NCBI GenBank assembly: GCA_038060895.1
Contig: JBBTCT010000027.1
Span: 64,001 to 128,000, forward strand
Origin: Planctomycetota bacterium
GTDB lineage: Bacteria; Planctomycetota; MHYJ01; WSZJ01
Length of the DNA: 64,000 nucleotides
Direction of reading: 5' to 3'
The notes under the pieces were generated by a model. That model did no database searches. It worked only from the letters and a program-made list of their open reading frames with translations, and was not told the DNA's origin. Made by a program: the position numbers and the translations under genes. Below, in pieces: positions 1 through 59,029 of the stretch. Each line of letters opens with the position of its first letter. Position 1 is the first letter of the stretch.

Positions 1-1980
1 GCGCCACATCTCGGCGAAGACCTTCGACTTGTCCGGGCTCAGGTTGATCACGCAGTTCGACGTCACGCAGTCGACGCTCGCGTTGATGACGGGAAGAGTC
101 TCCAGGAACCCCTTTTTGAACTCCACGTTCGACCAGCCGAGGTTTTTCGCGACGACCGGCTTGCACTCGTGCGCGACCTTGAGCATCTCATCCGTCATGT
201 CCACGCCGATCGACTTGCCGGTCTTCCCGACGAACTTGCTCGCGATGAAGCAGTCGATGCCGGCGCCGCTTCCCAGGTCGAGGTGCGTCTCGCCTTCCTT
301 CAGGTCGGTCAGCGCGACCGGGGAGCCGCAGCCGTAGAACCGGTCGATGACGTCCTGCGGGATGTGGCCGACGTGATCCTTCGGATACGAGGTCGGGCAG
401 CAGAGTTCTTTCTGGGGTTCTTCGGCAGCCTTCCCGTAGTACTTCCGGACGCGCTGCCGCGCCTGGTCGATGTCGACGGAGAGCACGCAGTTCGAGTGGG
501 ACGTCGAGACGGTGACTTCGCCCGGAAGGGGCCGGTGTTCGCTGGCGCAGTGTTTTTCGCCCTGGCCCATCGCGCGCACCGCGTAAGGTGCGTCGAACCC
601 CGATTTCCGGTTCACCTTCGAGAGCGCTTCCTGGGCCATCGCCTCAAACTGGTCGGCGATGGTCGCCTTCCAGAGTTCGCAGTACGGGTCGGCGCCAAGG
701 ACAGAGCCGCCCGATGCCCAGTAGGAATGCTCGATGTCGCCGCCACCGCAGAGGAATTTGAGGGAGCAGTCGCGGCACAGGGCCTTTTCGCGGACGGAAG
801 CGTTCTGGAATGTGCGGCAGACCGGGGCGTCACGCAGGATCGCGTCGAGCCTCTGCGTTGCGACGTCGCCGCAGAGGAGCTCCGGGACGCCGCTGAATGA
901 GGCGCTCGGGTAGACCTTGCCGTCGTAATTCACGCAGAGCGATTCGACGCCCGCGTTCCCGAGATCGAGCTTGTCCCCGGCCGCGCGGTCGAGCCGCAGC
1001 TTGAATGCCTCGTCGTTGTCCACGCGGACGCCCGCCTCGGCCGAGGCCTTTCTCGTCGCGCGCATCTGCCGGATCAGCCGGTCGGTCGGGACGAAGAAGT
1101 CGCTCCCCGGTTCGACGGCGCGGCCGCGTTTGTGGAGCCACATGAAGTGCACCGACTCGATGCCGAGCTTTTTCGCGAGAGCGGGGAACGCCGGGAGTTC
1201 ATCGATGTTTTTATTTGTGACGACGCAGGACAATGTCAGGTGCGGCACCCCCGCCGCCACCAGCTCCTTCACGCCCTTCACGATCCGCTCGAACGTCCCT
1301 TCGCCGCGCACCGGGTCGTTCGTCGCCGGCGTCGCCCCGTCGCACGACACCTGGAGCCGCAGGCGGTCGCGGTGGGGAAGAGCCGCGAGCCGCTTCGCGT
1401 CGCAGCGGGTCCCGTTCGTGAGAATGGTGAGGCCGGCGGTCGCGGTGACCTTTGCGATGAAGTCGTAGATGTCCTCGCGCAGGAACGGCTCGCCGCCCGT
1501 GACGAAGAACTCCTTCACGCCGAGGGCGAGGGCCTGGTCCACGATCCCGAAAAGAACCTCCCGCGAAAACCCCTTCGCCCCCTCCGGCCCGCTCGACACG
1601 AGGCAGTGCGTGCACGTGAGATTGCAGAGGTTGTTGACCTGGATCCACAGTTCCCGGAGCTGCGGCTTCTTGTGGGCTGCGCGGCCGGCGTAGGCGCTGC
1701 GCGTGAAGGGCTTTTCGTCCAGCAGGTGGGTGCGCAGGCCGTCCTCGATCGCGGTGCGGACGTGGATCCACGCCTTTGCCGCTTCGACGGCGAACTCGTT
1801 CGCGTACCGTTCGGTGATGTCGCGCACCGTCCGGTGGCCGTCCACCCAGCCCAGGATCGCCGCACCGCGCGGGTCGGTCGCAACCCAGTTCGGCCCGTCC
1901 GGATCCACGAGCACGCGCGCTCCGTTCTCGCCGAACTGGAGAAGCGGTGGGGCGTGCAGGACGGACTTGTCGTGGAGCAT
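1..1980 (-). CDS. Radical SAM/SPASM protein with N-terminal RRE(PqqD)-like domain fused to an ArsM-like SAM-dependent methyltransferase; 3' end runs off the window
   Basis: Not in the ORF track (no stop in window). Hand translation from ATG 1980 (purine-rich AAGGGGAAGG upstream): MLHDKSVLHAPP..., CNLTCTHC, CRDCSLKFLCGGGD...DPYC, then VRKYYG..LCCP..FYGCGSP..LDLGSGAGIDC..GVDMTDEML..SNCVINLSPDK. Confidence 0.9.
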   Translation of the reverse strand, partial: MLHDKSVLHAPPLLQFGENGARVLVDPDGPNWVATDPRGAAILGWVDGHRTVRDITERYANEFAVEAAKAWIHVRTAIEDGLRTHLLDEKPFTRSAYAGRAAHKKPQLRELWIQVNNLCNLTCTHCLVSSGPEGAKGFSREVLFGIVDQALALGVKEFFVTGGEPFLREDIYDFIAKVTATAGLTILTNGTRCDAKRLAALPHRDRLRLQVSCDGATPATNDPVRGEGTFERIVKGVKELVAAGVPHLTLSCVVTNKNIDELPAFPALAKKLGIESVHFMWLHKRGRAVEPGSDFFVPTDRLIRQMRATRKASAEAGVRVDNDEAFKLRLDRAAGDKLDLGNAGVESLCVNYDGKVYPSASFSGVPELLCGDVATQRLDAILRDAPVCRTFQNASVREKALCRDCSLKFLCGGGDIEHSYWASGGSVLGADPYCELWKATIADQFEAMAQEALSKVNRKSGFDAPYAVRAMGQGEKHCASEHRPLPGEVTVSTSHSNCVLSVDIDQARQRVRKYYGKAAEEPQKELCCPTSYPKDHVGHIPQDVIDRFYGCGSPVALTDLKEGETHLDLGSGAGIDCFIASKFVGKTGKSIGVDMTDEMLKVAHECKPVVAKNLGWSNVEFKKGFLETLPVINASVDCVTSNCVINLSPDKSKVFAEMWR

Positions 1981-2171
1981 TGCGGACCTTCCCCTTTGCA
2001 ATGCGATGGCTTTACCAACTCCACTCGATGGTAAGAGTCCCGGGCGGAATCGGCAAGACGGGTCGGGCGCGCCTGAGCGTGAGAAAAATCCTCGCGGGTT
2101 TGGCTGCGTCGGCTTTTCCTTGTGGTTACTGCGCAGCTGATGGTTCTTGCGCCGACTCTGCCCAACCCACG

Positions 2172-2200
2172 AAAAAGTTTTCACTCTCAGGCGTGAAAAC
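2172..2200 (-). terminator. Palindrome GTTTTCAC-N8-GTGAAAAC followed by T5 on the minus strand; terminator of the FHA gene or an operator
   Basis: Perfect 8-bp inverted repeat 2177-2184/2193-2200; A5 at 2172-2176. Confidence 0.45.
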
Positions 2201-2284
2201 GACTTTCTTTGCCTGCGCTTTGGTTATTCGGATGCAGGAAGGGCATTCTGGATCCGGGAGGGGCAGGCTTCCGCTCGATGCGCC

Positions 2285-4120
2285 CTATTTCTTCGGTTCC
2301 GGCGCTGGCGCAGCGGCCGCGGCCTGGATCATCCAATTCGCAAGGAACTGGTACATCGAGTAGTGCGCCTTCGGGTCCGTCGAGACCTGCTGAAGGTGGC
2401 TCACAATATGGAGCACCCGCCCCTTCCCGTATCCAAACGTCGCCGCCACGCACCCCGTTCCCCATTTCTTCTTCATCTCGGCGCTCTCGACCAGCACCTT
2501 CACCTTGTCTTGCGCCTTGGGGTCCACCTTGAAGAGGTACGACCTCTCCTCCAGGTACCACTTGGTCGCGTCGCCTTTGAAATTGAAGACGTCCGTAAGA
2601 AGCGGGTCCCCGTTCGCCCCCTCCGCTGCTTCGATCCCGACCCAGGTCTCCGGCGACAGGGTCACGTTTCGCAGATACCCGGGAAACGCTTCCTTGATCG
2701 GCGACAGCGCCCAGTCGGTACTCACGACCCAGCCGCCCTTGTCGACGTAACTCCGCAGTTTCAGGATTCCCGAGCCGTCCAGCTCTCCGGGGCAATTGAT
2801 GATCAGCACCTTCACGCTGCTCAGTTTTGCGCCGCCAAATTTCCGCGGATCAATGGTTGTGTACCGCAGCTTCAGCTTGTCCAGCACCCGCTGTACCGTG
2901 TCGTACTCGCCCGTGACCACCGCGATTTCTCCCGCCTCCATCATCGCGACCGTCTTCCAGCCGCCGTGCTGCCCGTTCTCCAGGTTTCCACGCACCAGGT
3001 CCGCCGGATCGTCCCCCGGCTTGATTTCCACCGCGTCGTTCGGCTTGCCGCCGACTTTCTTGTCCACCGGCAGCCCCGGCGCCGGCTTCTGTCCCTTTTC
3101 CCACGACCCGTCGTCCGGCACCAGCTCCACCTTTACGAACTTTTTGAAAGCACCTCGCTTCGAGAGCGAGATCGCCGGGCGCGGGCTGGAAGCGGCGCGG
3201 GAAGAAGCGTCGGCAGCGGGAGTCGAGTCCGACATCGCGACCGAGTCCAGGTTCAGCTCCGGCTCCGCATTCTGTTCAGTAAGATCCGGTGTCGCAGGAC
3301 GCTTCGACACCTTCGGCGCGTCCGCCCCATCCGGCACGCCCTTTCCGTCTCCTTCCCGCACGTCGGCGGGCGGAATGAATATCGACTTCGGCGGCGCGAG
3401 GGTGACCGTGAGCGGCGAGGGCGGCGTCGCGATGTAGTGACGGTAGACGCAGACGGTGAGAACGAGCGCAATGAAGCCATGGATGCCGAGCGAAAGGGCG
3501 ATGGAGCCCGAAGCGGCGGCAGCGCTGACGAGGGAACGAACCGTGAATCGGCGGTCGTGGGCGCGCAGGCGGGCGCGGCGGGAAGGTGGAGCCAGTTTCG
3601 GTGCTATGGGGGAAGGCGCACGCGGAGGCGCGAGTTCGAGGGACATTGGAGGCGCTGCCGCGCCTTCGGCGCTTTGGCGTTGCTCGCTCAGGGGGGCCAG
3701 GGCCCCCGCGTCTGCTTCGCGGACGCGGGGGGTGGTTCCCAGGCCCGAGCCGGGGGCGGGAGGGGGGGAGATTCCCGACGCTCCGGGGTCCGGAAGCTGC
3801 AACCGCTGCAGACTTTCCGCTCGGGCCTGGCCACCGCCTGTTAAGAAGAGGAATCGGGCTGGACCGATCGTCACGGCCAGTCCGTCCGTCACGGCGACGC
3901 GGTCAACTTTTGCATCGTTGACCAGGAGGCCGTTCCTGCTTCCGGCATCGACCAGTTCCGCAGTTCCGTCGTCCGCGATCTGAATCCTTGCGTGACGACC
4001 TGAGACCTTCGGGTGATCGATCCGGATGTCCGCAGAGCGAGAGCGTCCGATCACGGTTGACTTGGCATCGAGTTGCCGGGTCGTTTTCCCGCCGTCCCAC
4101 TCGATGGTTACCGTGAGCAT
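2285..4120 (-). CDS. FHA-domain membrane protein (FHA, Pro-rich linker, TM helix, C-terminal class I GATase-like fold)
   Basis: IGRS..DIRI.HPKVSGRHA..D.GSRNG FHA motifs; hydrophobic segment SIALSLGIHGFIALVLTVCV; C-terminal VLIINCPG...YVDKGG. Confidence 0.8.
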   Translation of the reverse strand: MLTVTIEWDGGKTTRQLDAKSTVIGRSRSADIRIDHPKVSGRHARIQIADDGTAELVDAGSRNGLLVNDAKVDRVAVTDGLAVTIGPARFLFLTGGGQARAESLQRLQLPDPGASGISPPPAPGSGLGTTPRVREADAGALAPLSEQRQSAEGAAAPPMSLELAPPRAPSPIAPKLAPPSRRARLRAHDRRFTVRSLVSAAAASGSIALSLGIHGFIALVLTVCVYRHYIATPPSPLTVTLAPPKSIFIPPADVREGDGKGVPDGADAPKVSKRPATPDLTEQNAEPELNLDSVAMSDSTPAADASSRAASSPRPAISLSKRGAFKKFVKVELVPDDGSWEKGQKPAPGLPVDKKVGGKPNDAVEIKPGDDPADLVRGNLENGQHGGWKTVAMMEAGEIAVVTGEYDTVQRVLDKLKLRYTTIDPRKFGGAKLSSVKVLIINCPGELDGSGILKLRSYVDKGGWVVSTDWALSPIKEAFPGYLRNVTLSPETWVGIEAAEGANGDPLLTDVFNFKGDATKWYLEERSYLFKVDPKAQDKVKVLVESAEMKKKWGTGCVAATFGYGKGRVLHIVSHLQQVSTDPKAHYSMYQFLANWMIQAAAAAPAPEPKK

Positions 4121-4152
4121 TGGCTTTGTTTCCTTGGACGAGATGGGATTAA

Positions 4153-4168
4153 AGCAAGGGATGTGCCG
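4153..4168 (-). promoter_or_regulatory. Sigma-54 (-24/-12) promoter of the FHA gene
   Basis: Minus strand CGGCACatcccTTGCT = GG-N10-GC, near consensus, about 33 nt upstream of ATG 4120 in an AT-rich spacer. Confidence 0.65.
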
Positions 4169-4404
4169 TGGTGAACGAAAATTGTAACTCCTTGTGCCGC
4201 TATAAGATACGAGTTTTCAACAGCGGGCCATTCGTTGAAACTGTCAACCGCAGTTACAACTCGAGGCTGAAATGCAATGGAAGTGTTCAGGGTGCTGACA
4301 AGTTTCTTGCCTTTTTCAAATGCCGGGCCAGATGCGGAATCTATTCTTGCCCGTCGATACCGCTCGCGTCTCCCGCTGGTCTTGATCCCTATGTCCAGCT
4401 GGGC

Positions 4405-5469
4405 TCACACCTTTGGACGCATCTCACGATCATAGAGTTCCTCGTTGGCCCTCACCATTCCGGAAACGGTGTACTCACGTCCCGCCACCTCTCGCCCCTT
4501 CTCGCCCATTGATTTCGCCATTTCGCGATCCTCCAGAATCGACGAAAGCCGGTCCGCGAGCGACAGCGGATCTCCGGCCGCCACGACATACCCCGTCACT
4601 TTCTCGCGCACCAGTTCGACCGATCCGCCCACCGCCGTCGCCACGACCGGCAGCCCCCACGCCATCGCTTCCAGCACGACATTGGGCAGCCCTTCCCACT
4701 TGCTCGGCAGCACCAGTACCCGCGCGCTCCGCCAGAACGGTGCCACATCCGCCTGGAACCCGCACCACTCGACTCCCTCCACTCCCAGGCCGCGGAGTTC
4801 CGCTTCCTGCGGGCCTTTCCCGACGATGCGCAGCCTCGCCTCCGGGACTCGCTTGCGGACAAGCGGCCAGGCCGCGAGGAGACTCCTCACGTCCTTCTGC
4901 GGCTCGAGCCTCCCGACGAAAAGCGCTTCCGGCCTCGACCGGTCCACTCCTTCCAGCGACGGCAGCTCCACGCCATTGCGCACCACCACCAGCTTGCGAG
5001 GGTCGATCCCCGCTACCCGTTCCGTGTATTCGCGAACCGCTTCGCAGACGCACGTCTCGCAATCCATCTGGCCTTGCGTCAGCCGGTCCCACAGCAAGTG
5101 GTGCTTGCGCGTCTCGCACACGCGCACGCTCCCGATCACCCTCCGCACACCCGCCCGCCGTGCGACCATCCGGCCGAGCATGTTGGCGTGAAAAAGGAAT
5201 GAGTGGAGGATGTCCGGCTTCCACTCGGCCAGCTTGCGCTTGAGCCGGAAGGGCGCGCCGATGTCCCACTTGCGCTTCATGCCGAGCGATTCCGCAGGCA
5301 CGCCGGCCTGGATCAGTGCCTCGCCGACCGCGCCGAAGCCGCGCAGGCACAGAACGCGGGGTTCGAAGCGCGTGCGGTCGAGACCCGTGGCGAGATGGTA
5401 GAGCTGTTTTTCCGCGCCGCCGGGGTCGAGCTCGGTGATGAGGAAGAGGATGCGGAGGAGGGAAGGCAT
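4405..5469 (-). CDS. GT4 family glycosyltransferase
   Basis: ILFLITELDPGGAEKQL, FVGRLEPQKD, PSKWEGLPNVVLEAMAWGLPVVAT; start moved to ATG 5469. Confidence 0.9.
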   Translation of the reverse strand: MPSLLRILFLITELDPGGAEKQLYHLATGLDRTRFEPRVLCLRGFGAVGEALIQAGVPAESLGMKRKWDIGAPFRLKRKLAEWKPDILHSFLFHANMLGRMVARRAGVRRVIGSVRVCETRKHHLLWDRLTQGQMDCETCVCEAVREYTERVAGIDPRKLVVVRNGVELPSLEGVDRSRPEALFVGRLEPQKDVRSLLAAWPLVRKRVPEARLRIVGKGPQEAELRGLGVEGVEWCGFQADVAPFWRSARVLVLPSKWEGLPNVVLEAMAWGLPVVATAVGGSVELVREKVTGYVVAAGDPLSLADRLSSILEDREMAKSMGEKGREVAGREYTVSGMVRANEELYDREMRPKV

Positions 5470-5658
5470 GGCAGGCTGATGATGGCCGTCGTGTTGAGAA
5501 TACTCAACCTCGAATGAGGGCCGCATCCGCGGATAAATGCCGGATCTCGCGGAACCAGCCGCGGATAAAGACCAGCCGGTCGAACCTGCATGCAGGGGCG
5601 TCGTTGACTAGCAGTGGGGTCAGGCCCTACGCTTCCCCCACTCTAAGGAGATCGCCGC

Positions 5659-6357
5659 ATGACCCGCTTGATGTCCGTCGCACTTCTCGTGCTCCTTGCC
5701 GCCAGCTCTTCCACCAGTGCCGACGCCCTGTCTGACCGCTGGACGAAATTCAAGGCCGGGAGCTTCGTGAAAATAAAAACTACGGCGAAGCTCTCGGGCG
5801 AGGAGATGGTAGAAGAGTCGAAGTTCACGCTGACCGAGGTCACGGCCGATTTCTACGCGCTCAAGATCGAGACCTCCATGGGTGGGAACGCGCTTCCCGT
5901 CACCGACGTGAAGTTTCCGCTGACGCCGTCCGCGGCCCAGGACTGGACCTGGGAGGAGAAAGGCATCTCGGAGCTGGAACTCGACGGGCAGAAGATGAAG
6001 TGCTCGGTCCGCGTCGCGACGAGTTCGGACAAAAAGAGCCTGTGGACGGTGTGGATCACGGAGGTCGGCGGGGCGCCGCTGGAAGTGAAGTCGGAGAAGA
6101 AGCTGGTGGTGCCGGGAGGATCGCGGACGGAAACCAGCGCGGTGATCAAGCTGTCGGAGTCGGTGAAGATCGGCGAGAAGGAGGTCGCCTGCTGGGTGAA
6201 GACGGTGGTGCTGGAGATTGAAGGGCAGAAGGCGGAGAGCAAGGTGTGGGAGAGCCGGGACATGCCGGGGCTGGTGGTGAGGAGCGAGCAGAAGACGAGC
6301 TCGGGGGCGCTGGTGATGACGACGACGAGGGAAGTGGTCGAGTTTGAAGTGAAGTGA
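5659..6357 (+). CDS. Secreted hypothetical beta-strand-rich protein
   Basis: Signal peptide, AAGGAG SD, GC3-biased codons. Confidence 0.75.
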   Translation: MTRLMSVALLVLLAASSSTSADALSDRWTKFKAGSFVKIKTTAKLSGEEMVEESKFTLTEVTADFYALKIETSMGGNALPVTDVKFPLTPSAAQDWTWEEKGISELELDGQKMKCSVRVATSSDKKSLWTVWITEVGGAPLEVKSEKKLVVPGGSRTETSAVIKLSESVKIGEKEVACWVKTVVLEIEGQKAESKVWESRDMPGLVVRSEQKTSSGALVMTTTREVVEFEVK

Positions 6358-6363
6358 AGGGCG

Positions 6364-6448
6364 GTTTGGGGTTTGGAGTTCCGGAGGTTGAGTTCCGGGA
6401 TCCGGGTTCCGAGTTCCGGGTGGGGTTTGGGGTCGGGAGTTTGGAGTT
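6364..6448. repeat. Degenerate tandem heptamer tract G(G/A)GTT(C/T)(C/G)
   Basis: GGTTTG GGGTTTG GAGTTCC..GAGTTCC GGGATCC GGGTTCC GAGTTCC..GGGTTTG GGGTCGG GAGTTTG. Confidence 0.7.
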
Positions 6449-6481
6449 GATCCGGGGGTTGCTGTGGGGGGTGTGGCACTA

Positions 6482-7117
6482 GTGCGCGTCCTCATTTTCG
6501 ACCTGGACGGGACGCTGGCCGAAACGCGCCTCGATATCGCGGCGGCCGCGAATCACGCGCTTCGGACGGTCGGGCTCGCGGAGATGCCGGTTGCGCGGAT
6601 CACGACCTTCGTGGGCGAGGGCGCTGGAAAACTGATCGAACGATGTCTTGGCGCACGGCAGGACCTGTTCGCGCCGGCAATGGCGGCGTGGACCGCCCAC
6701 TATGAAATCCACCTGCTTGACACGAGCGTCCTTTACGAGGGCGTCGCCGCCACTCTCGCGCGACTTCCCGCGCCGCTCGCGGTCCTCTCGAACAAACCGG
6801 CGGGGATGACGAAAACGATTCTCGACGGCCTCGGCATCGCGCGGTATTTCGCCGAGGCCCTCGGCGGCGACTCGCTTCCGGTGAAAAAGCCCGATCCCGC
6901 GGGGATCATGCACCTCACCCGTTCGACCGGAGCGCAAACGGCGGTGCTGATTGGCGACACGCCGATCGACGTCGGGACGGCGCGGGCGGCAGGCATTCCG
7001 TGCTGGGGCGCCGCGTACGGCTTCGCAGGCAGGGCCGCCCTGGCGTACGCTGGGGCGGACGCCATTTTCGAGAGGTTCGAGGATGTGGCCGCGATGGCGG
7101 ATCTCTTGACCGATTGA
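6482..7117 (+). CDS. HAD-family hydrolase (phosphoglycolate phosphatase-like)
   Basis: FDLDGTL, SNK, KKPDP, IGDT..D motifs. Confidence 0.88.
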   Translation: MRVLIFDLDGTLAETRLDIAAAANHALRTVGLAEMPVARITTFVGEGAGKLIERCLGARQDLFAPAMAAWTAHYEIHLLDTSVLYEGVAATLARLPAPLAVLSNKPAGMTKTILDGLGIARYFAEALGGDSLPVKKPDPAGIMHLTRSTGAQTAVLIGDTPIDVGTARAAGIPCWGAAYGFAGRAALAYAGADAIFERFEDVAAMADLLTD

Positions 7118-7119
7118 GA

Positions 7120-7148
7120 ATCTATTGATATATATGCAATCAATAGAT
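7120..7148. promoter_or_regulatory. Palindromic operator ATCTATTGAT-N9-ATCAATAGAT
   Basis: Perfect 10-bp inverted repeat in an AT-rich patch 21 nt before a wHTH regulator. Confidence 0.7.
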
Positions 7149-7169
7149 CGACAATCAAAGGAGACTCAA

Positions 7170-7730
7170 ATGGAAAACGCCCCGCTCCTCGCCGGCGCCC
7201 TGTCCAGCCCCGCCCGCTCCCGCCTTCTCGCGCTCCTCCGCGAGCGGGGGCCTTCGACGCAGACGGAGCTCGCCCGCGAGATCGACGCCGCCCCGGCGAC
7301 CGCCGCGTACCACCTCCGGAGGCTCGAAGCGGCAGGGCTGGCACGCCAGGCCGGAACCCGGCCCGGCCCGCGGGGTACCGTCGAGAGGTTGTTCTCGATC
7401 TCGACCCGCGGGCGCCGGATGAGATTCGTGACCCGCCACGGAACGAAGGAGGACCAGATCATGCGCCGGTCCTCTCTGTCGGAGGTCCTCGACATCCACC
7501 GGGTGGCCACGCGCGCCATCCTCCGGGAGCCCGGCCGCTTCTTCGGGCTGTCCACGAGCCGCGTCTCGGCGACGCCGGCGCAGTTCCGCAGCCTTCATCG
7601 CCGCATCGGCGCGCTCCTGAAGACCTTCGCCAGGGGTCGCGAACGCGCGCCGAAGACCGGTGAAGAGCGTTGTGCAGCGCATTTCGGCCTGTACCCGGTC
7701 GGCCATCCGGCGCCTCGCAAGGCAAATTAG
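7170..7730 (+). CDS. Winged helix-turn-helix (ArsR-like) transcriptional regulator
   Basis: ALSSPARSRLLALL..TQTELAREI..AYHLRRLEAAGL; AAGGAG SD before ATG 7170. Confidence 0.85.
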   Translation: MENAPLLAGALSSPARSRLLALLRERGPSTQTELAREIDAAPATAAYHLRRLEAAGLARQAGTRPGPRGTVERLFSISTRGRRMRFVTRHGTKEDQIMRRSSLSEVLDIHRVATRAILREPGRFFGLSTSRVSATPAQFRSLHRRIGALLKTFARGRERAPKTGEERCAAHFGLYPVGHPAPRKAN

Positions 7731-7784
7731 CCTCGCGGGTCCGAATTGACCCCGCTTTCACCCCCCCATACACTCCGCCGCTCC

Positions 7785-8126
7785 ATGACTCCCGAACAAG
7801 CCGCTCGATCCCTTGGCGAAGAACTCGCTTCCAGCCCGGAACTCACCGAACTGATGCGCTGTGAGAAGGCCTACGCCGCGGACTCTGCCGCGCAGGCACT
7901 GGTGAAGTCGGCGCAGGACGCGGGCGCGAGAATCCAGGAGTTGCAGAAGGCCGGAAAGAAGCTGGAACTGGCCGAGGCAAAGCGCATCGCGGAAGTCCAG
8001 GCGAACCTGGACTCGTGCAGGGTTGTTCAACAGCTGGTCGCTTCGCAGAAAGCCTACGAAGCCATGGTGCAGCGGTTGAACGGGGTCGTGCAGTCCGTCG
8101 TCGAGGAGAAGCGAAAAAAGGGATGA
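7785..8126 (+). CDS. YlbF/YmcA-family regulator
   Basis: A..LGEEL..SPE helical pattern; ATGA overlap with lysS. Confidence 0.7.
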   Translation: MTPEQAARSLGEELASSPELTELMRCEKAYAADSAAQALVKSAQDAGARIQELQKAGKKLELAEAKRIAEVQANLDSCRVVQQLVASQKAYEAMVQRLNGVVQSVVEEKRKKG

Positions 8127-12945: not shown

Positions 12946-13030
12946 GTGTGCAGCTCCTTTGGTAAAGCGGATGCTTGTGGAACGACGAGGGGCGGATCAT
13001 AGGAAGAGGCCGCAGCGGGGTCAACGATAG

Positions 13031-13192
13031 GCGGGCGAGCGGGCGAGCGGGCGAGCGGGCGAGCGGGCGAGCGGGCGAGCGGGCGAGAAACAACAACTTC
13101 CCGAACCCGGATGTCCTTTTGATGTTCGCCCGCCCGCCCGCCCGCCAGCCCGCCCGCCCGCGTTTTGAATCCCGCCAGCCCGCCTGCCCGCG
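13031..13192. repeat. (GCGGGCGA)x7 tract paired with a degenerate inverted (CCCGCCNG) tract
   Basis: Seven perfect octamers 13031-13086; complementary arm 13125-13192. Confidence 0.9.
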
Positions 13193-13205
13193 TATGATTT
13201 CCCGG

Positions 13206-14054
13206 ATGTCCAGCCCCACGAAGATCGCGGCCGGCGATGCGGCGTGCGAAAAACTCGCGCGCTCGCACTACGAGAACTTCACCGTCGGCTCCTGGTTCCT
13301 GCCGAAGGACATGCGCCGCGACTTTTTCGCCGTGTACGCGTTTTGCCGCGCGACCGACGACATCGGCGACGAAGCCCCCGGCGACCGCCTCGCGGCCCTC
13401 GACGCCTGGGAAAAGGACCTCCGCAAATGCTGGGGCGGAGAACCCGCCGAGATCATGCTCGTGGCCCTCGCACGCACCATCCGCGAACGCAAGCTCCGAC
13501 AGGATCCCTTCCTCCGACTCATCGAAGCCAACCGCATGGACCAGCGGCAGTCGCGCTGGGAATCGTGGGACGACCTCCGGCGATACTGCGCCCACTCCGC
13601 CGACCCCGTGGGCCGCATGGTTCTGGGACTTTTCGGGCAGGACGACGCGAAGCGCGGCCCGCTGTCGGACGCCATCTGCACCGGACTTCAGCTCGCGAAC
13701 CACTGGCAGGACGTGGGACGCGATGCCGCTGAGAAGGGCAGGATATACCTTCCCCTGGAGGATCTCGCACAGCACGGCGTGAAGGAAGCCGACGTCATCG
13801 CCCGGCGCTCTTCACCCGCGTTCGTCGCACTGATGAAGTCGCAGGTGGACCGTGCCCGCGCGCTTTTCGACGAGGGCGAACCGCTTCTGGACCTCGTCAG
13901 CGGCACGCTGAAACGTGACGTAAAGCTGTTTCTCGGCGGGGGCCGGGCGATCCTGGACGCGATCGAGAAACAGGGGTGGGACACACTGGTGAAGCGGCCG
14001 AAGGTGTCGAGGAAGACGAAGGTCTGGCTGGCGATGAAAGCGCTGGTAGGTTAG
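13206..14054 (+). CDS. hpnC: Hydroxysqualene synthase HpnC
   Basis: HYENFTVGS, YAFCRATDDIGDE, SADPVGR, LQLANHWQDV..D..GRIYLP. Confidence 0.92.
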   Translation: MSSPTKIAAGDAACEKLARSHYENFTVGSWFLPKDMRRDFFAVYAFCRATDDIGDEAPGDRLAALDAWEKDLRKCWGGEPAEIMLVALARTIRERKLRQDPFLRLIEANRMDQRQSRWESWDDLRRYCAHSADPVGRMVLGLFGQDDAKRGPLSDAICTGLQLANHWQDVGRDAAEKGRIYLPLEDLAQHGVKEADVIARRSSPAFVALMKSQVDRARALFDEGEPLLDLVSGTLKRDVKLFLGGGRAILDAIEKQGWDTLVKRPKVSRKTKVWLAMKALVG

Positions 14055-14065
14055 GGGCGTCGTTC

Positions 14066-14161
14066 CCTTAACCTTAACCTTTCCCTTATCCTTAACCGGT
14101 CGTTACCGAGGCTGAACATCGGCAGGGCAGGTTAAGGTTAAGGGAAAGGTTAAGGTTGAGG
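14066..14161. repeat. 32-bp inverted arms made of CCTTAA/TTAAGG hexamers (30/32 identical) with a 32-nt loop
   Basis: 14066-14097 versus 14130-14161. Confidence 0.9.
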
Positions 14162-14192
14162 GGCGCCGCTGGGCGGCGCGTCCTTGCCGCCA

Positions 14193-15098
14193 ATGACTCA
14201 GCCCATCATCGCCGCCGGAGTGGAAACTGTCCGGGCACCCGCGTCGACGGTGTCGGTCGATGCGGCGTATGCCTACTGCGAGGACCTCACGAGCCGCGAG
14301 GCCCGGAACTTCTACTACCCCATCCGCGGACTGACGCGCGACCGCCGCCGGGCGATGTGCGCGGTCTACGCGTTCTCGCGGGGCGCGGACGATATTGCCG
14401 ACGAACCGGGTATCGAGGACCGAGCCGGCCGATTCGCCGAGTTCCGCCGGCGGCTGGAAGCGGCCTTCGCGGGCGTGCCGGAGGGGGAGATCTTCGTGGC
14501 CCTCGCGGACGCGGGAAAACGGTTCAATCTTCCGAAGCGCAACCTGGCCGAGATCATTGACGGCGCGGAGCAGGACCTCTCGGTGACCCGGTACGCGACG
14601 TTCGCAGACCTCCGCTCCTATTGCTACAAAGTCGCTTCCGCCGTCGGCCTCGTCTGCGTTGAGATTTTCGGCTACCGCGACCCGGCGGCCCGGACGCACG
14701 CCGAGACGCTCGGGATCGGGATGCAGCTCACGAACATCCTGCGCGACGTTGCCGAGGACGCGCGTCGCGGGCGCATCTATCTGCCGGCGGAAGAACTGGC
14801 CCGCTTCGGCGTCCGCGAGGAAGACGTGCTGGCGCTCAAATTCACGCCGGCGTTCGTCGAGCTCATGAAGTTCCAGGTTGCGCGCGCGCGGGAGACCTTC
14901 GCAAATTCAGAAGGGCTGTTCCCGCTCCTCGAGCGAAAGGCGCGCTTCTGTCCGCTCGCGATCCGCGGGCTGTATGCGGGGATCCTCGACCGGATCGAGC
15001 GGCGGGGTTACGACGTCTTCGCGGGCCGGGTATCGCTTTCTGCGCCGTCGAAAGTCCTCTGCGTCATGGGGGCCTGGTTCCGCGCGTGGACGTATTGA
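14193..15098 (+). CDS. hpnD: Presqualene diphosphate synthase HpnD (squalene/phytoene synthase family)
   Basis: NFYY, YAFSRGADDIADE, YCYKVASAVG, MQLTNILRDVAEDARRGRIYLP. Confidence 0.9.
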   Translation: MTQPIIAAGVETVRAPASTVSVDAAYAYCEDLTSREARNFYYPIRGLTRDRRRAMCAVYAFSRGADDIADEPGIEDRAGRFAEFRRRLEAAFAGVPEGEIFVALADAGKRFNLPKRNLAEIIDGAEQDLSVTRYATFADLRSYCYKVASAVGLVCVEIFGYRDPAARTHAETLGIGMQLTNILRDVAEDARRGRIYLPAEELARFGVREEDVLALKFTPAFVELMKFQVARARETFANSEGLFPLLERKARFCPLAIRGLYAGILDRIERRGYDVFAGRVSLSAPSKVLCVMGAWFRAWTY

Positions 15099-15099
15099 A

Positions 15100-15291
15100 A
15101 TGAAGCCCGGGAAGGGAAGTCTTGCGGTGCTGGCGCTGACCCAGTGTGCCGTGGCGTGCGTCCTGGTGTTCCGGTTCTGGCATCCGCACCCGATCTGGCG
15201 AATCCCGGTGGCGTTCGGTCTGCTGGTCGGGTCGTTCCTGCTGGCGGCATTTGAGGTCGGGACTTTGCGGGGGTTGATGAAGAGGAAATGA
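15100..15291 (+). CDS. 63-aa two-TM membrane protein inside the hpn operon
   Basis: Starts 1 nt after the hpnD stop, ATGA overlap with hpnE, two hydrophobic segments. Confidence 0.65.
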   Translation: MKPGKGSLAVLALTQCAVACVLVFRFWHPHPIWRIPVAFGLLVGSFLLAAFEVGTLRGLMKRK

Positions 15292-16577
15292 GTCAATCCG
15301 CAATCGTTGCAGGCGGAGGCCTCGCGGGAATTGCGGCCGCATGCGACCTCGCAGACGCCGGATGGAAGGTCACGCTCCTCGAGCGCAGGAAACGGCTGGG
15401 CGGCATGGTCGCCTCTTTCCCGGATGCCGGGAGCGGCGGCGAAATCGACAACGGCGAGCACATCGCGATCGAGGCCTGCACGGAACTGCTCGCCCTGTTC
15501 GGACGCCTCGGCTGCCTGGACCGGATCAAGCGCCAGGCAAAACTCCGACTCCCGTTTGTCGGCCCTGACGGCCGGGTCGCGGAACTTACCGAGTCGTCGT
15601 GGTCTTTCCTGACCTTTCCGTTCCTTTCGCTCGGCGATCGCTGGCGCGTGGCGCGCGCGCTGCGGCGCATCGGGAAGCTGCGCGACGCCGAAATCGCCCC
15701 GCTCGACAATTTCACGTCGGCCGACTGGCTGGACGATCTCGGGCAGTCTCCGGCGTCGATCTCGCGCTTCTGGGATTTCTTCCTCGCCCCCGCGCTCAAC
15801 GAGCCCGCTTCCCGATCGTCCGCAGCCCTGGCCGCCCGCGTCCTCCGCGATGCCATGGGACTCGGGCCGAAGTACTCACGGTTCTGCCTGTTTCGCGCCC
15901 CGCTGGGGACCGTGTTTTCCGCGGCTGCGGAGGCTTATCTGAAAACCAGGGGCGGGGAAGTCCGCTCACTCAGCGCTGTGACAAAGGTGCTGCCGGAACC
16001 CGGCCGGATCGTTCTTGAGCTTTCCGACGGTGAAAGCGTCGCCGCAGATGCTTGCGTCCTCGCGCTTCCGCATGCCGACCTCGCCGAGGTCTTCCCGGAC
16101 TCAGCGCCGCCGCTGGAGCACTCGCCGATCCTGAACGCGCATCTCTGGTACGACAAACCGGTCACTTCGCTCGAAGTCTTCGCGATGATCGATTCCCGCG
16201 TCCAGTGGGTCTTCAACCGCAGCGTCATTTCCGGTCTCCCGGGACCCGGGCAGCACCTGTCGTGCTCGATCAGCGCCGCTCGCGACTGGGCCCACCGGCC
16301 CGGCGAGGAAATCGCCTCCGATTGCGACGCGGAACTGAAGCGCCGCTTCAAGGGCGAGGCGCGGCTCGTGAGATTCGTGGTTTCGCGGGAGCACCGGGCG
16401 ACCTTCAGCGCACGGCCCGGAACGGCGCCAATGAGGCCGGGGCCGCGGACAAAGCACCCGGGGCTGGTGCTGGCGGGGGCGTGGACGGACACCGGGTTGC
16501 CGGCGACGATGGAAGGGGCGGTTCGGAGTGGACGGGCCGCGGCGAAAGAGATCGTGGCTGAGGGCAAGCCGGGTTGA
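15288..16577 (+). CDS. hpnE: Hydroxysqualene dehydroxylase HpnE
   Basis: GGGLAG FAD motif, IDNGEH, LAGAWTDTGLPATMEGAVRSG; position after hpnCD. Confidence 0.88.
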   Translation: MSQSAIVAGGGLAGIAAACDLADAGWKVTLLERRKRLGGMVASFPDAGSGGEIDNGEHIAIEACTELLALFGRLGCLDRIKRQAKLRLPFVGPDGRVAELTESSWSFLTFPFLSLGDRWRVARALRRIGKLRDAEIAPLDNFTSADWLDDLGQSPASISRFWDFFLAPALNEPASRSSAALAARVLRDAMGLGPKYSRFCLFRAPLGTVFSAAAEAYLKTRGGEVRSLSAVTKVLPEPGRIVLELSDGESVAADACVLALPHADLAEVFPDSAPPLEHSPILNAHLWYDKPVTSLEVFAMIDSRVQWVFNRSVISGLPGPGQHLSCSISAARDWAHRPGEEIASDCDAELKRRFKGEARLVRFVVSREHRATFSARPGTAPMRPGPRTKHPGLVLAGAWTDTGLPATMEGAVRSGRAAAKEIVAEGKPG

Positions 16578-17839: not shown

Positions 17840-20074
17840 ATGCAAGACAACGATATCGCCCAGATTGCCGTGCAGGAGGGCTTGCTGTCCACCGTCGAGC
17901 TCGACCGGGTCCGCCGGGAAGTCTCGTCCGCGGGCGGCGGCGACCTCGTCTCGGCGCTTCTGTCGGCCGGGCTCCTGCGCACGACGGATGTCGACCGGAT
18001 CCGCCGCGACCGCGGAAACACGACGACGCGGATCCCCGGCGAAATCGTCTCGACCTCTCACAAGCGGATCGTGCCGGACGAGGTCACGGCGGCGGCGAAA
18101 GACCCGCGCAGCGAATTCGGGCGCTACACGCTTCTCGAAAAAATCGGCGCCGGCGGAATGGGAACCATCTGGAAAGCGTGGGACAACCTGCTCGGCCGCT
18201 GGGCGGCGATCAAGATGCTTCACGAAGAGCACGCCGTTCACGACGATCACCGCGAGCGCTTCCTGCGCGAGGCCCGCGCAGCGGCGCGGCTGGCGCACCC
18301 CAACATCGTGCAGGTGTACGAAGTCGGCGTTCAGGGAAACATCGTTTTTATCGCGCTCGAGTTCTGTCCCGGAGAGACGCTTCGACTCCGCATCGCCCAT
18401 CGCGCGACGGGCCCCGAGACGAGGCGCCGCATCGAGCTGGTGAGGCAGTCGGCGGAGGGGCTCGGCTCGGCGCACGCGGCGGGGATCACGCACCGCGACA
18501 TGAAGCCCGAGAACGTGCTTGTGCTGCCGACGCCGAAAGGCGGGCACGCGAAGGTCGTGGACTTCGGACTCGCCGTGGACAAGACCGCAGTCACGCGCCT
18601 GACCGTCGCCGGCGACGTCTTCGGCACGCCGGCTTACATGGCCCCGGAGCAGGCCCTCGGCCTGCAGGAAATCGTCGGCCCGCCCGCGGATGTCTTCGCC
18701 TGCGGATGCATCCTCTACGAGATCGTCACCGGGAAGCTGCCCTTCGAGGCCGACCAGGCCGCCGCCAGCGTCTACAACACGATCCACACGGATCCGCCGC
18801 CGATCTCCACGCTCGCGCCGAAAGTTCACCCGGATCTCGAGACGATCGTCTCGAAGTGCCTGGAGAAGGACCCGGAGCGCCGCTACCCGACGGCAAAGGA
18901 ACTCGCCGAGGACCTCGGGCACTACATGGCCGGCGAACCGATCGGCGCCCGCCCGGTCGGATTCGTCGGGCGCATGCGCCGACGCGCCGAGCGCAATCCC
19001 GCGCTGGCCGCCGCCCTTGCCGCCGCCGTCCTTCTCCCGGGCGCGCTCATCGGGATCTTCTGGTGGGAAACGAAGGCGCGTGACGAGAACATCTCCGTGT
19101 CTCTCGTGCAGGCGGCGCAGCTGGAAGAAGAGGCCGTCTCGAATCCCGCCCTGCTTCGCAGCGTCCGGGCTCTCTACGATTCCGTTCTTCGCGACGACCC
19201 CAGCAACGAAGACGCCCTCGCGGGTCTTGCGCGCGTCGCAAAGGCGCTTCAATCCCCCGAAGGCCGCGAGACGTCAGCGACCGCCGGGACCGGAGCGCGC
19301 CTGGCCGCGGAAGTCAGGTTGGCCATGCGGACGCGCGGCGGACTCGCCGCCGCCGAAGGAACCTGCAACACCCTGGTCTCGGGATTTCCCGACATTCCCT
19401 CGTCCTGGTATGCACGCGCCGAGCTCCGTTACCGGCTCGGACTGCCCGGCGCCGCCCTCGCGGATCTGGACTCGGCTCGCGACAATTGGGAAGAGGTGCC
19501 GGAAGCGCGGCACCTCCGGGTGATGTGCCTCATCGATCTCGTGCGAACCGAGGATGCCCGGCTGCTGGTTGCCCCTGAGGACGCCGAGGGCCCAGCGGCC
19601 GTCGAGCTCGCGGCGCTGCGGCTCCTGCAGGGACGCCGGGACGAAGCGCGTGCCGCCCTGGCGAAAGCCGGCGTCGCGACGGCGGAGTCGCTGTGGATCG
19701 AAGGGCGCCTGAAAGCACGCTCCGGCAGCTGGTCGGCCGGGGCGAAGGAGTTTGCGGCCGCCGCAGCCCTTGATCCGGGATTTGCCCCGGCCCACCTCGC
19801 GCTGGTTCTTGCAGCCCTTGAATCGGACGGCGCCGCGGCGGCTCTTCCGAAAGCCCGGCGTCTCGTCTCCGAAGCGCCCGGCCACGCGGTTGCCAGGGTC
19901 GTCCTGGCGAATCTCCTGCATGAGACCGGCGACCGCCCGGAGGCCGCGCATGAGGCGTGGCGGGCGGCGAGGATTCTTCCGTCGCCGCCGCTTCTGTCGC
20001 TGAGCGGAACCTACCGCCTGCTCGCCGGCGACGCGGAGGGAATTGCAGATCTGCTCGCCGCCGCGCCGCGCTGA
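17840..20074 (+). CDS. Ser/Thr protein kinase with TM helix and TPR-like C-terminus
   Basis: GAGGMG, AIK, HRDMKPEN, DFG, GTPAYMAPEQ. Confidence 0.93.
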   Translation: MQDNDIAQIAVQEGLLSTVELDRVRREVSSAGGGDLVSALLSAGLLRTTDVDRIRRDRGNTTTRIPGEIVSTSHKRIVPDEVTAAAKDPRSEFGRYTLLEKIGAGGMGTIWKAWDNLLGRWAAIKMLHEEHAVHDDHRERFLREARAAARLAHPNIVQVYEVGVQGNIVFIALEFCPGETLRLRIAHRATGPETRRRIELVRQSAEGLGSAHAAGITHRDMKPENVLVLPTPKGGHAKVVDFGLAVDKTAVTRLTVAGDVFGTPAYMAPEQALGLQEIVGPPADVFACGCILYEIVTGKLPFEADQAAASVYNTIHTDPPPISTLAPKVHPDLETIVSKCLEKDPERRYPTAKELAEDLGHYMAGEPIGARPVGFVGRMRRRAERNPALAAALAAAVLLPGALIGIFWWETKARDENISVSLVQAAQLEEEAVSNPALLRSVRALYDSVLRDDPSNEDALAGLARVAKALQSPEGRETSATAGTGARLAAEVRLAMRTRGGLAAAEGTCNTLVSGFPDIPSSWYARAELRYRLGLPGAALADLDSARDNWEEVPEARHLRVMCLIDLVRTEDARLLVAPEDAEGPAAVELAALRLLQGRRDEARAALAKAGVATAESLWIEGRLKARSGSWSAGAKEFAAAAALDPGFAPAHLALVLAALESDGAAAALPKARRLVSEAPGHAVARVVLANLLHETGDRPEAAHEAWRAARILPSPPLLSLSGTYRLLAGDAEGIADLLAAAPR

Positions 20075-24964: not shown

Positions 24965-25336
24965 TTACCGCCGCTTCGCCCGTCCGGACCGGAGTTGCGC
25001 CAGTCCCTCCGCCATGAGCGCCGAAACCCAGGAAGAATCGATCGAGTACACGACCCGGAGGCCCTCCGAGCGTGCCGCGAGGACCCCCAGGATGGCCATG
25101 AGCCTCAGCTGGTTGGAGACGGCGGTCACTTTCATGCGAAGAGCGTCGGCGACGCCCTGCACGTGCAGTTCTCCGGCTCCGGCGAGGGCGTGGAGGATCC
25201 GCAGGCGCGTCGGGGAGCTCAGCAGTCCGAACATGTCGGCCAGTTTGCGGACGTGCGAGGCGTCGATCCGCGAGGGGAGCGTCGAGGATCCCTTAGAGGG
25301 AACAGGTGCGGGGGAAGGGCGGTGGTGGGGGTGCAT
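24965..25336 (-). CDS. ArsR/SmtB-family regulator (start uncertain)
   Basis: FGLLSSPTRLRIL..ELHV..AVSNQLR..G..V.Y. Confidence 0.8.
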   Translation of the reverse strand: MHPHHRPSPAPVPSKGSSTLPSRIDASHVRKLADMFGLLSSPTRLRILHALAGAGELHVQGVADALRMKVTAVSNQLRLMAILGVLAARSEGLRVVYSIDSSWVSALMAEGLAQLRSGRAKRR

Positions 25337-49176: not shown

Positions 49177-52087
<2,911 letters not shown>

Positions 52088-54096: not shown

Positions 54097-54168
54097 GGTG
54101 GCCTCGAGGTGGTGAAGGGAGGGAGCCACAATCGGGGAAGGAGGGAACGCGGTCAAGAGTTGCGGATT

Positions 54169-58917: not shown

Positions 58918-59029
58918 GGGGGCGTGACAATAGCGGGGGTTCGCCGGGCATGGAAGCGAGATGAGTGCGGGAATTCCCGCGTGAGCGCGCTTCACGCTGC
59001 GGGCTTCCTGTGACAGAATCCCGCCCCCC

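Follow-up and report, generated by a model that had tools for sequence, protein, structure and literature searches.

The left end of a 64,000-nucleotide stretch of a Planctomycetota genome (GenBank assembly GCA_038060895.1, contig JBBTCT010000027.1, positions 64,001 to 128,000 of the forward strand; hereafter the window) carries a gene whose product joins four parts in a single chain: a RiPP recognition element (RRE; RiPP, ribosomally synthesized and post-translationally modified peptide), a radical S-adenosylmethionine (SAM) core, a degenerate SPASM domain and a methyltransferase of the ArsM/AS3MT type. This architecture had been proposed in an earlier note made from the DNA letters; profile searches with Pfam and NCBIfam bear it out, and every motif quoted there is found in the translation at the residues listed below. 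The fusion is read here as an enzyme with two activities that serves an organoarsenical pathway of the arsenosugar type, in which the radical SAM module would be a non-orthologous replacement of ArsS, a reading to which a probability of roughly 55% is given. The idea of a replacement is put forward because the methyltransferase is of the ArsS-linked lineage, while an RRE–radical SAM–SPASM half that is not ArsS occupies the place of ArsS, both in the chain and in the gene neighbourhood.

The comparisons draw on a protein search of a collection of 5.8 billion proteins, which gave 1417 matches among 8000 scored candidates (the 120 that were listed are called the listed homologues below), and on a scan of species-representative genomes, which kept 80 loci, to be taken as a lower bound. 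A structure model was built with AlphaFold2 from a 35-sequence alignment, not on the window protein but on P0003, a full-length homologue with 91% identity. Its mean predicted local distance difference test value (pLDDT) is 87.3 and its predicted template modelling score 0.83, and pLDDT falls below 50 only at residues 477–483 (the loop of C478) and 809–819 (the cysteine tail).

The methyltransferase half and its link to ArsS

The top NCBIfam match of the whole protein is the arsenite methyltransferase model NF008823 (E 1.8e-47, residues 506–660, model positions 6–171 of 272), and Pfam places Methyltransf_31 at residues 561–658 (E 6.4e-19). The cysteine motifs are found as LCCP at residues 526–529 (CC527/528), YGCG at 549–552 (YGC551GSP) and SNCVINL at 641–647 (C643), and the SAM-binding motif LDLGSGAG at 567–574. 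Among the listed homologues, CCP is kept in 118 of 120, YGCGxP in all, SNCVxNL in 119 and DLGSGxG in 113; the fourth cysteine, in WGEC, lies past the window edge and is seen in 119. When the full-length P0003 is compared with CmArsM (4kw7/4fr0) by phmmer, residues 506–788 align (E 5e-37), and so do all four cysteine motifs. The arsenic-binding cysteines of CmArsM are C44, C72, C174 and C224, of which C72 and C224 also appear in PDB titles. Foldseek searches of the PDB with the C-terminal half return ArsM and human AS3MT at the top (32–35% identity, target template modelling (TM) score 0.61–0.66). NCBIfam, phmmer, Foldseek and the cysteine motifs are therefore in agreement with the methyltransferase type that had been proposed.

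The relationship of this half to other methyltransferases was addressed with a quick IQ-TREE tree of 98 domains, which had been called for in the earlier note (support by the Shimodaira–Hasegawa-like approximate likelihood ratio test only, midpoint root for drawing, seven rows removed as near-duplicates or long branches). A branch with support 94 has all 32 fusion rows on the same side. A wider clade, with support 99, contains these 32 rows, 16 ArsS-fused domains and six stand-alone proteins, and lies apart from the 44 other stand-alone proteins; one of the six, L055, has a true ArsS beside it (49% identity). The fusion methyltransferase thus groups with those fused or adjacent to ArsS, and, as judged from this tree, it is a member of that ArsM lineage whose partner is ArsS.

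According to one report, arsS is co-transcribed with arsM, and ArsS uses the methylarsenite products of ArsM (10.1101/2022.09.23.509062); according to another, ArsS cleaves the adenosyl C–S bond of SAM (10.1101/2024.02.01.577332). The earlier note held that radical SAM and ArsM enzymes act in such pathways as separate proteins, which proved inaccurate, since single-chain ArsS–ArsM fusions exist. A search for longer forms of the Burkholderia glumae ArsS listed 120 proteins, 45 of which carry an ArsM-type methyltransferase by motif count (54 by a hand count of the PF13847 column); in 42 of the 45 the radical SAM module precedes the methyltransferase. One of these fusions, P0260, shares 35% identity with P0003 across the whole methyltransferase half and has the same cysteine motifs. 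In precomputed Pfam assignments, ArsS is also fused to GT2, DUF2064, VTT plus Pyr_redox, PHO4 and metallophosphoesterase domains; these accessory fusions (P0245, P0247, P0257, P0266, P0268, P0290, P0292, P0351, P0352 and P0356) provide Rosetta-stone links to the whole set.

The radical SAM half

The first domain of the chain is a PqqD-like RRE. The Pfam model PF05402 matches residues 23–75 just over its cutoff (25.5 bits against 23.4, E 1.7e-5), and the P0003 model predicts an RRE topology, with strands at residues 14–16, 22–26 and 31–35 and helices at 37–45, 52–63 and 67–83. In tblastn alignments with plasmid records, residues 12–90 match pqqD and the next residues match the adjacent pqqE. 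D26, P30, W32 and G39 are invariant in 35 aligned sequences.

The radical SAM core contains the CX3CX2C motif as CNLTCTHC (residues 119–126, with C119, C123 and C126; nucleotides 1603–1626) and the motif TGGEP (nucleotides 1486–1500); CNLxCxHC is conserved in all listed homologues and GGEP in 119 of them. From the retention of motifs in these 120 proteins, both catalytic halves of the fusion look intact.

The canonical SPASM motif has seven cysteines that hold two auxiliary [4Fe-4S] clusters. The fusion family shares the RRE and the CX3CX2C core with the RRE-dependent radical SAM/SPASM maturases of RiPPs and lacks the full seven-cysteine motif. Its SPASM region shows GNAG at residues 341–344, VYPSA at 356–360, CRDCSLKFLC at 402–411 followed by GGGDIEH, and DPYC at 431–434. 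Of the ligands of the first cluster, the second cysteine is replaced by Ser359 (YPSA) and the cysteine after CxxCx5C by Asp415 (GGGDIEH), and C349 is left as an invariant orphan. The ligands of the second cluster, C402, C405 and C411 of CxxCx5C and C434 of DPYC, are present and are usually kept in the family. The counts in listed homologues (YPSA in 118 and YPC in none, GGGDxEH in 119, CxxCx5C-GGGD in 114) and the alignments confirm what had been noticed in the window protein, that the first-cluster cysteines are replaced while CxxCx5C..D..C is kept. Six of the listed homologues (P0017, P0074, P0076, P0095, P0110 and P0116) are without CxxCx5C and DPYC and keep GGGDxEH and everything else; to judge by their sequences, the SPASM-derived domain of these members cannot bind an auxiliary cluster through the usual ligands.

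The SPASM region is followed by a family-specific linker without counterpart in the CmArsM alignment, which starts at residue 506. Across the 35 sequences G461, M471, G472, S496 and C498 never vary, and conservation of C478 reaches at least 90%.

No curated full-length NCBIfam model matches the fusion. Its radical SAM part matches the models for MftC, StsB, Rv1681, ScmF, WgkB, AhbD and NirJ-type proteins, all under their cutoffs, and the best of them is MftC, with 129 bits against a cutoff of 265. Foldseek searches of the PDB with the N-terminal half return CteB, TigE, anSME, ChlB, SuiB, SkfB, BlsE and PqqE (target TM up to 0.75), and phmmer aligns residues 20–420 of P0003 with CteB (E 6e-7).

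Distribution of the fusion family

Each of the 120 listed homologues is a complete fusion, 786–877 residues long, with 98–100% query coverage and 46–91% identity. In the genome scan the fusion is found in at least 26 loci, 24 of them full and two clipped by contig ends, and the other 54 of the 80 are stand-alone ArsM-like genes. The genomes with the fusion belong to Nitrospirota, Planctomycetota, Gemmatimonadota and Acidobacteriota; fragments and further members come from anammox bacteria, Omnitrophota, Elusimicrobiota and others, and similar-looking proteins form two ESM Atlas clusters, with 160 and 97 members. Full-length homologues and loci in four phyla dismiss the objection that the junction could be an artefact. 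They also show that the fusion is not hidden, as the earlier note had called it: it forms a large database family under generic names, such as “methyltransferase domain-containing protein” and “radical SAM protein with SPASM domain”. A literature search, whose coverage left out most subscription journals, returned no paper on a radical SAM–ArsM fusion or on this family, which is widespread yet undescribed.

The fusion is absent from the plasmid collection searched, in which none of 569 matching records covers at least 80% of the query. Homologues of 253–805 residues are mostly contig-end fragments of the same fusion, and a few proteins of 466–556 residues, encoded on long contigs, may be either genuine split versions or products of frameshifts. 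A tblastn search with residues 1–495 found no separate RRE–radical SAM gene beside the 54 stand-alone ArsM loci, except for a weak match at L059. The closest stand-alone relatives of the fusion methyltransferase (L027, L028, L029 and L030, from Nitrospirota, Nitrospinota and Leptospirillia; 52–59% identity) have no radical SAM partner within the available flanking sequence.

Gene neighbourhoods

Open reading frames (ORFs) around the fusion were clustered in 24 genome loci and the window. The recurrent neighbours are a GT2 protein over the cutoff of TIGR04283, “arsenosugar biosynthesis glycosyltransferase” (L001, L003, L015, L020, L024 and L026); a DUF2064 protein, which corresponds to TIGR04282 and is over its cutoff in L003, L015, L024 and L026; a PHO4/PiT transporter gene immediately downstream, whose start codon often overlaps the stop codon of the fusion gene; and DUF547, a MerA-like flavoprotein disulfide reductase and a VTT/DedA membrane protein. 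PiT-type transporters carry arsenate; the PHO4 neighbour has its best score, a weak one, on a sulfate permease model. Of the 26 fusion loci, 18 have at least one of GT2, DUF2064, DUF547, PHO4 and VTT; among the 54 stand-alone ArsM loci the number is 4. Both counts are from tblastn with queries that came from fusion loci and so favour detection in related phyla. Two of the loci are compact same-strand arrays: L026 has the order PyrRedox–DUF547–GT2–fusion–DUF2064, and L015 has this core with VTT upstream and PHO4 downstream. No true ArsS was found in the fusion loci, within a reach of about 10 kb, where the search gave only matches of 24–34% identity to the fusion's own radical SAM core.

The annotation of the B. 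glumae plasmid NZ_CP100267 lists arsS with thioredoxin, methylthioadenosine phosphorylase, TIGR04283, TIGR04282, a flavin adenine dinucleotide (FAD) oxidoreductase and a TVP38(VTT)/FAD-oxidoreductase fusion, and this accessory set appears to be largely that of the present fusion. The phosphorylase (S-methyl-5'-thioadenosine phosphorylase; L081, 8072–8953, plus strand) belongs to an arsenosugar-type cassette, in which it could strip adenine from an adenosyl-arsenical; no gene for it was seen beside the fusions.

A precursor peptide was also sought. An all-versus-all blastp-short comparison of ORFs of 18–110 residues within 1.5 kb of the fusion in 25 loci (24 genome loci and the window, the latter with its downstream side absent) gave no conserved ORF, a comparison that divergent or distant peptides would escape; the only multi-locus clusters are Arg-rich, low-complexity, out-of-frame ORFs and ORFs antisense to PHO4. 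No RiPP peptidase domain was found among the scanned neighbours, and the sole transport genes seen, of the HlyD/MacB type, form a pair at least 1.4 kb downstream in L005. Nor were selenium genes seen among the fusion neighbours. The dual peptide maturase that had been offered as an alternative in the earlier note finds no support in these results. The other product suggested there, an organo-arsenic compound, is favoured by the neighbourhoods of the relatives and by the methyltransferase tree, and the window itself provides no arsenic context for it.

In two loci without the usual accessory set, other genes lie directly downstream of the fusion: a calcineurin-like phosphoesterase in L012 (12493–13326, minus strand) and, in L021 (12457–13608, plus strand), a GTPase of the CobW/HypB/UreG type that weakly resembles a CobW-related selenoprotein model.

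Proposed mechanism and alternative explanations

In the proposed mechanism, the ArsM half would bind As(III) on its conserved cysteines and methylate it with SAM. The methylated As(III) would then be handed within the chain to the radical SAM site, perhaps by way of C349, C478 and C498 and/or the C-terminal CC tail. In the last case the tail would act like the Cys-rich tail of ArsL, which is reported to bind and present arsenite (10.1101/2024.02.01.577332). A second SAM would be cleaved reductively, and the carbon radical would attack arsenic to give an As–C bond, a step for which cyanobacteria use ArsS; the auxiliary cluster that remains may have a part in electron handling. The radical SAM half would act, then, on methylated As(III), most likely to form an As–C bond with it. 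Where they are present, PiT/PHO4, TIGR04283, TIGR04282, DUF547, the MerA-like disulfide reductase and VTT/DedA would supply the substrate or finish the product.

Several observations weigh against the assignment to an organoarsenical pathway. The radical SAM half is not ArsS and shares with it no more than the common core: it scores 56.3 bits on TIGR04167 (cutoff 300, model positions 4–149 of 303), and it shares 24% identity over 196 residues with the B. glumae ArsS, which scores 450 bits. The methyltransferase half remains under the curated cutoffs, with 162 bits (window) and 231 bits (full-length P0003) on NF008823 against 263, 217 on NF040538 against 500 and 176 on NF038099 against 400, although ArsM models are its top NCBIfam matches despite these scores. 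No arsenic-linked gene was found in the 64-kb window, where ArsS, TIGR04282/TIGR04283, DUF547, PHO4 and VTT were sought; eight of the 26 fusion loci are without any of the five accessory families, and the neighbour comparison has the query bias mentioned above. The “arsenosugar” names of TIGR04282 and TIGR04283 rest, as far as is known, on association and not on assay. In addition, the nearest families and folds of the radical SAM half are peptide or cofactor maturases (MftC, StsB, CteB, TigE, anSME and PqqE), and the conserved RRE, a domain that normally implies a peptide substrate, is unexplained by a small-molecule pathway.

Some of these points could be accommodated if the pathway is an organoarsenical one and the radical SAM half performs another radical step, such as tailoring of the carbon skeleton or a transfer other than that of 5'-deoxyadenosyl, the pathway then being completed by a separate ArsS gene at another genomic site or dispensing with an ArsS-type step. 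This half does resemble the hydrogen-abstracting SPASM/twitch enzymes (anSME, BlsE, DesII and MftC) and not ArsS, the eight loci just mentioned have no ArsS-type accessory genes, and the search for ArsS was confined to the fusion loci. Such a division of labour is nonetheless considered unlikely, given that the fusion holds both the position and the order of ArsS (radical SAM, then ArsM), and that not even the compact loci L015 and L026 have an ArsS within reach. A further departure would be a maturase of RiPPs or proteins, in which the RRE recruits a peptide or part of a protein, the radical SAM domain cross-links it or modifies it in another way and the methyltransferase methylates it (for example, on a thiol), the arsenic-type cysteines being inherited and reused. 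The conserved RRE and the best fold and profile matches of the N-terminal half (CteB, TigE, SuiB, SkfB, StsB and MftC) are what such an enzyme would have, but there is neither a conserved small ORF nor a RiPP peptidase beside the fusion, where the only transport genes seen are the HlyD/MacB-type pair of L005. A maturase would also leave unexplained why the arsenic-binding cysteine motifs of ArsM are retained in 118–120 of the 120 listed homologues; the tree puts the methyltransferase among ArsM proteins linked to ArsS, no member retains the site of the first auxiliary cluster, and six of the listed homologues have no auxiliary-cluster cysteine left. A maturase role is for these reasons held to be quite improbable.

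Least credit is given to the notion that the substrate is another soft element or compound (selenium, tellurium, antimony or a thiol compound), or that the radical SAM/SPASM half, rather than catalysing radical chemistry, assists a common detoxifying arsenite methylase as a redox partner or chaperone. The low scores on the ArsM models would fit it, as would the fact that the accessory families were first named “rSAM/selenodomain-associated” (the JGI name of P0266) and the sulfate permease score of the PHO4 neighbour; against it, the near-invariance of CX3CX2C and GGEP speaks for a working site of SAM cleavage, the solved structures that come nearest to the methyltransferase half belong to arsenic enzymes and show arsenic on the corresponding cysteines, and no selenium genes were seen among the neighbours. 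The non-orthologous replacement of ArsS is preferred, and it has a bolder version, which is offered tentatively and is rather doubtful: the fusion might be a third, independently evolved As–C bond-forming radical SAM enzyme built on the scaffold of a RiPP maturase, with an RRE and a SPASM domain, devoid of the first cluster, that have been repurposed so that arsenic is held by a cysteine in the linker or tail of the enzyme itself or in a small partner peptide. Many uncultured phyla of soil, sediment and groundwater would then make an undescribed organoarsenical.

The gene and other features of the window

The fusion gene is on the minus strand, in an open-ended frame of 728 codons (1–2184) that leaves the window at its left edge. 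From the probable start, an ATG at position 1980, it runs through 660 codons without a stop, so that the single frame of at least 660 codons that had been described is confirmed (Table 1). Its GC content at codon positions 1, 2 and 3 is 0.65, 0.45 and 0.89; this is typical for a genome with 66% GC, and the frame is for that reason judged to be a real gene. Its absence from the ORF list, which had been pointed out, is probably due to frames that leave the window going unlisted by default. Plus-strand shadow ORFs antisense to the gene (29–337, 971–1468, 1469–1693 and 1703–2140) have a GC content at the third codon position (GC3) of 0.77–0.92, and a gene caller based on GC3 that ignores open-ended frames would choose them over the real gene. 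What lies beyond the edge is the C-terminus and not the N-terminus: about 160 residues, estimated from the homologue lengths of 786–877, comprising the remainder of the ArsM core, in which the fourth cysteine lies, the ArsM C-terminal domain and the Cys-rich tail.

Table 1. Features of the fusion gene and its upstream region, with window coordinates.
Feature	Position	Strand	Basis
Fusion coding sequence, residues 1–660	1..1980	−	Stop-free frame; listed homologues of 786–877 residues, 98–100% query coverage
ArsM/AS3MT-type methyltransferase, N-terminal part, residues 506–660	1..465	−	NF008823, phmmer, Foldseek
Family-specific linker, residues 455–505	466..618	−	Conserved SGF, MG, C478 and HSNC498VLS
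Degenerate SPASM, residues 345–434	679..948	−	Pfam PF13186, E 3.7e-5 (match to residues 345–405); alignments
Radical SAM core, residues 115–263	1192..1638	−	Pfam PF04055, E 1.2e-20
PqqD-like RRE, residues ~14–83	1732..1941	−	Pfam PF05402, AlphaFold2 topology, pqqD alignment
Shine–Dalgarno-like AAGGGGAAGG	1987..1996	−	6 nt 5' of the fusion ATG; read off the sequence
Terminator-like hairpin and T-run	2177..2200	−	Between the FHA gene and the fusion gene; consensus scan, pattern match only

The scan for terminators gave three terminator-like sites against 0.7 expected from shuffles, and the hairpin at 2177–2200 suggests that the fusion gene may start its own transcript. A promoter scan of positions 1900–2400 found none, the terminator-like hairpin being all that was seen there, and a comparison of Rfam with positions 1–8000 gave zero matches. 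Upstream of the fusion on the minus strand are a 611-residue FHA-domain protein (2285–4120), a GT4 glycosyltransferase (4405–5526) and an unassigned ORF; next, on the opposite strand, come an HAD phosphatase, an ArsR-type helix-turn-helix (HTH) protein, LysRS, Lol-type ABC genes and squalene genes resembling HpnC, HpnD and HpnE. The operon partners of the fusion, if any, would be downstream, past the window edge.

HTH proteins of the ArsR family are encoded at 7125–7730 (plus strand) and 24965–25336 (minus strand), the former 5 kb upstream of the fusion gene and co-directional with the HAD phosphatase and LysRS. At 12975–16577 (plus strand) a pair of squalene/phytoene synthase genes precedes a gene for an amine-oxidase-type flavoprotein; this HpnC/HpnD/HpnE-like arrangement suggests squalene or hopanoid synthesis. 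Ser/Thr protein kinases are found at 17840–20074 and 60117–63269, both on the plus strand, one with TPR repeats and one with a beta-helix region. A 946-residue ThiC (49177–52017, minus strand) has its radical SAM domain at residues 505–924 and, if the assumed start codon is right, an N-terminal extension of about 500 residues without Pfam match (E 1e-6). An ORF of 1188 residues (54169–57735, minus strand; GC3 0.81), which matches no Pfam family at the same threshold, adjoins a BioB-like radical SAM gene (53098–54156) and an aminotransferase (57769–59142).

Significance and comparison with known systems

If the proposed role is correct, a widespread third scaffold, joined to ArsM, would extend the range of enzymes that form organoarsenicals, and a single polypeptide would allow methyl transfer and radical chemistry on a metalloid to be studied together. 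The fusion would also be one of the few examples of a pathway that includes an RRE domain yet has no evident peptide substrate. As a marker gene it would moreover make arsenic biotransformation traceable in Acidobacteriota, Gemmatimonadota, Nitrospirota and Planctomycetota, phyla that are common in soils and aquifers, where the speciation of arsenic matters for food and water safety.

With CmArsM and human AS3MT the fusion methyltransferase shares 32–35% identity, the same three-part fold, including the C-terminal domain, and the aligned cysteine motifs; unlike them, it is the C-terminal half of a protein of about 820 residues and follows a cysteine-bearing linker. It differs also from most stand-alone ArsM-like proteins, its branch being separate from that of 44 of the 50 in the tree. 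The N-terminal 450 residues have the domain order and fold of CteB, TigE, SuiB, PqqD–PqqE and MftC, with Foldseek TM values of 0.72 to CteB and TigE and 0.75 to anSME. In contrast to the RRE–radical SAM–SPASM maturases, the fusion is under every family cutoff, has Ser and Asp in place of the first-cluster ligands in nearly all members, is joined to ArsM, and has no precursor peptide gene detected beside it in the loci compared.

To our knowledge there are only two radical SAM routes to As–C bonds, those of ArsS and ArsL. The former is described as an adenosyl transfer and the latter as an aminocarboxypropyl transfer (10.1101/2024.02.01.577332). In the arsinothricin pathway, too, a radical SAM enzyme (ArsL) and an ArsM build an As–C compound, as the same source has it, and the arsenite-holding Cys-rich tail of ArsL has a parallel in the flexible Cys-rich tail of the fusion homologues, 111 of the 120 listed having a C-terminal CC. 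The RCCLKC tail given there for ArsL (10.1101/2024.02.01.577332) is seen in none of the 120; on the arsinothricin ArsM model the fusion scores 217 bits against a cutoff of 500, and its architecture, with RRE and SPASM, is another.

The ArsM plus ArsS systems of the Synechocystis type and the uncharacterised ArsS–ArsM fusions also combine a radical SAM module with an ArsM-type methyltransferase, in the order kept by 42 of 45 ArsS fusions. They have in common with the present fusion the methyltransferase clade and the accessory TIGR04283, TIGR04282, VTT, FAD disulfide reductase and PHO4. They differ in the radical SAM module, which in the present fusion is not ArsS and has an RRE and a SPASM-derived domain instead of the C-terminal Cys/Sec-rich DUF3641 (PF12345), for which Pfam gives no match in the fusion; the identity between the methyltransferases, 35%, is low as well. 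On these sequence comparisons, the logic of making organoarsenicals with a radical SAM enzyme and ArsM would be a known one, and what appears to differ is the radical SAM scaffold, in sequences that are widespread and already deposited.

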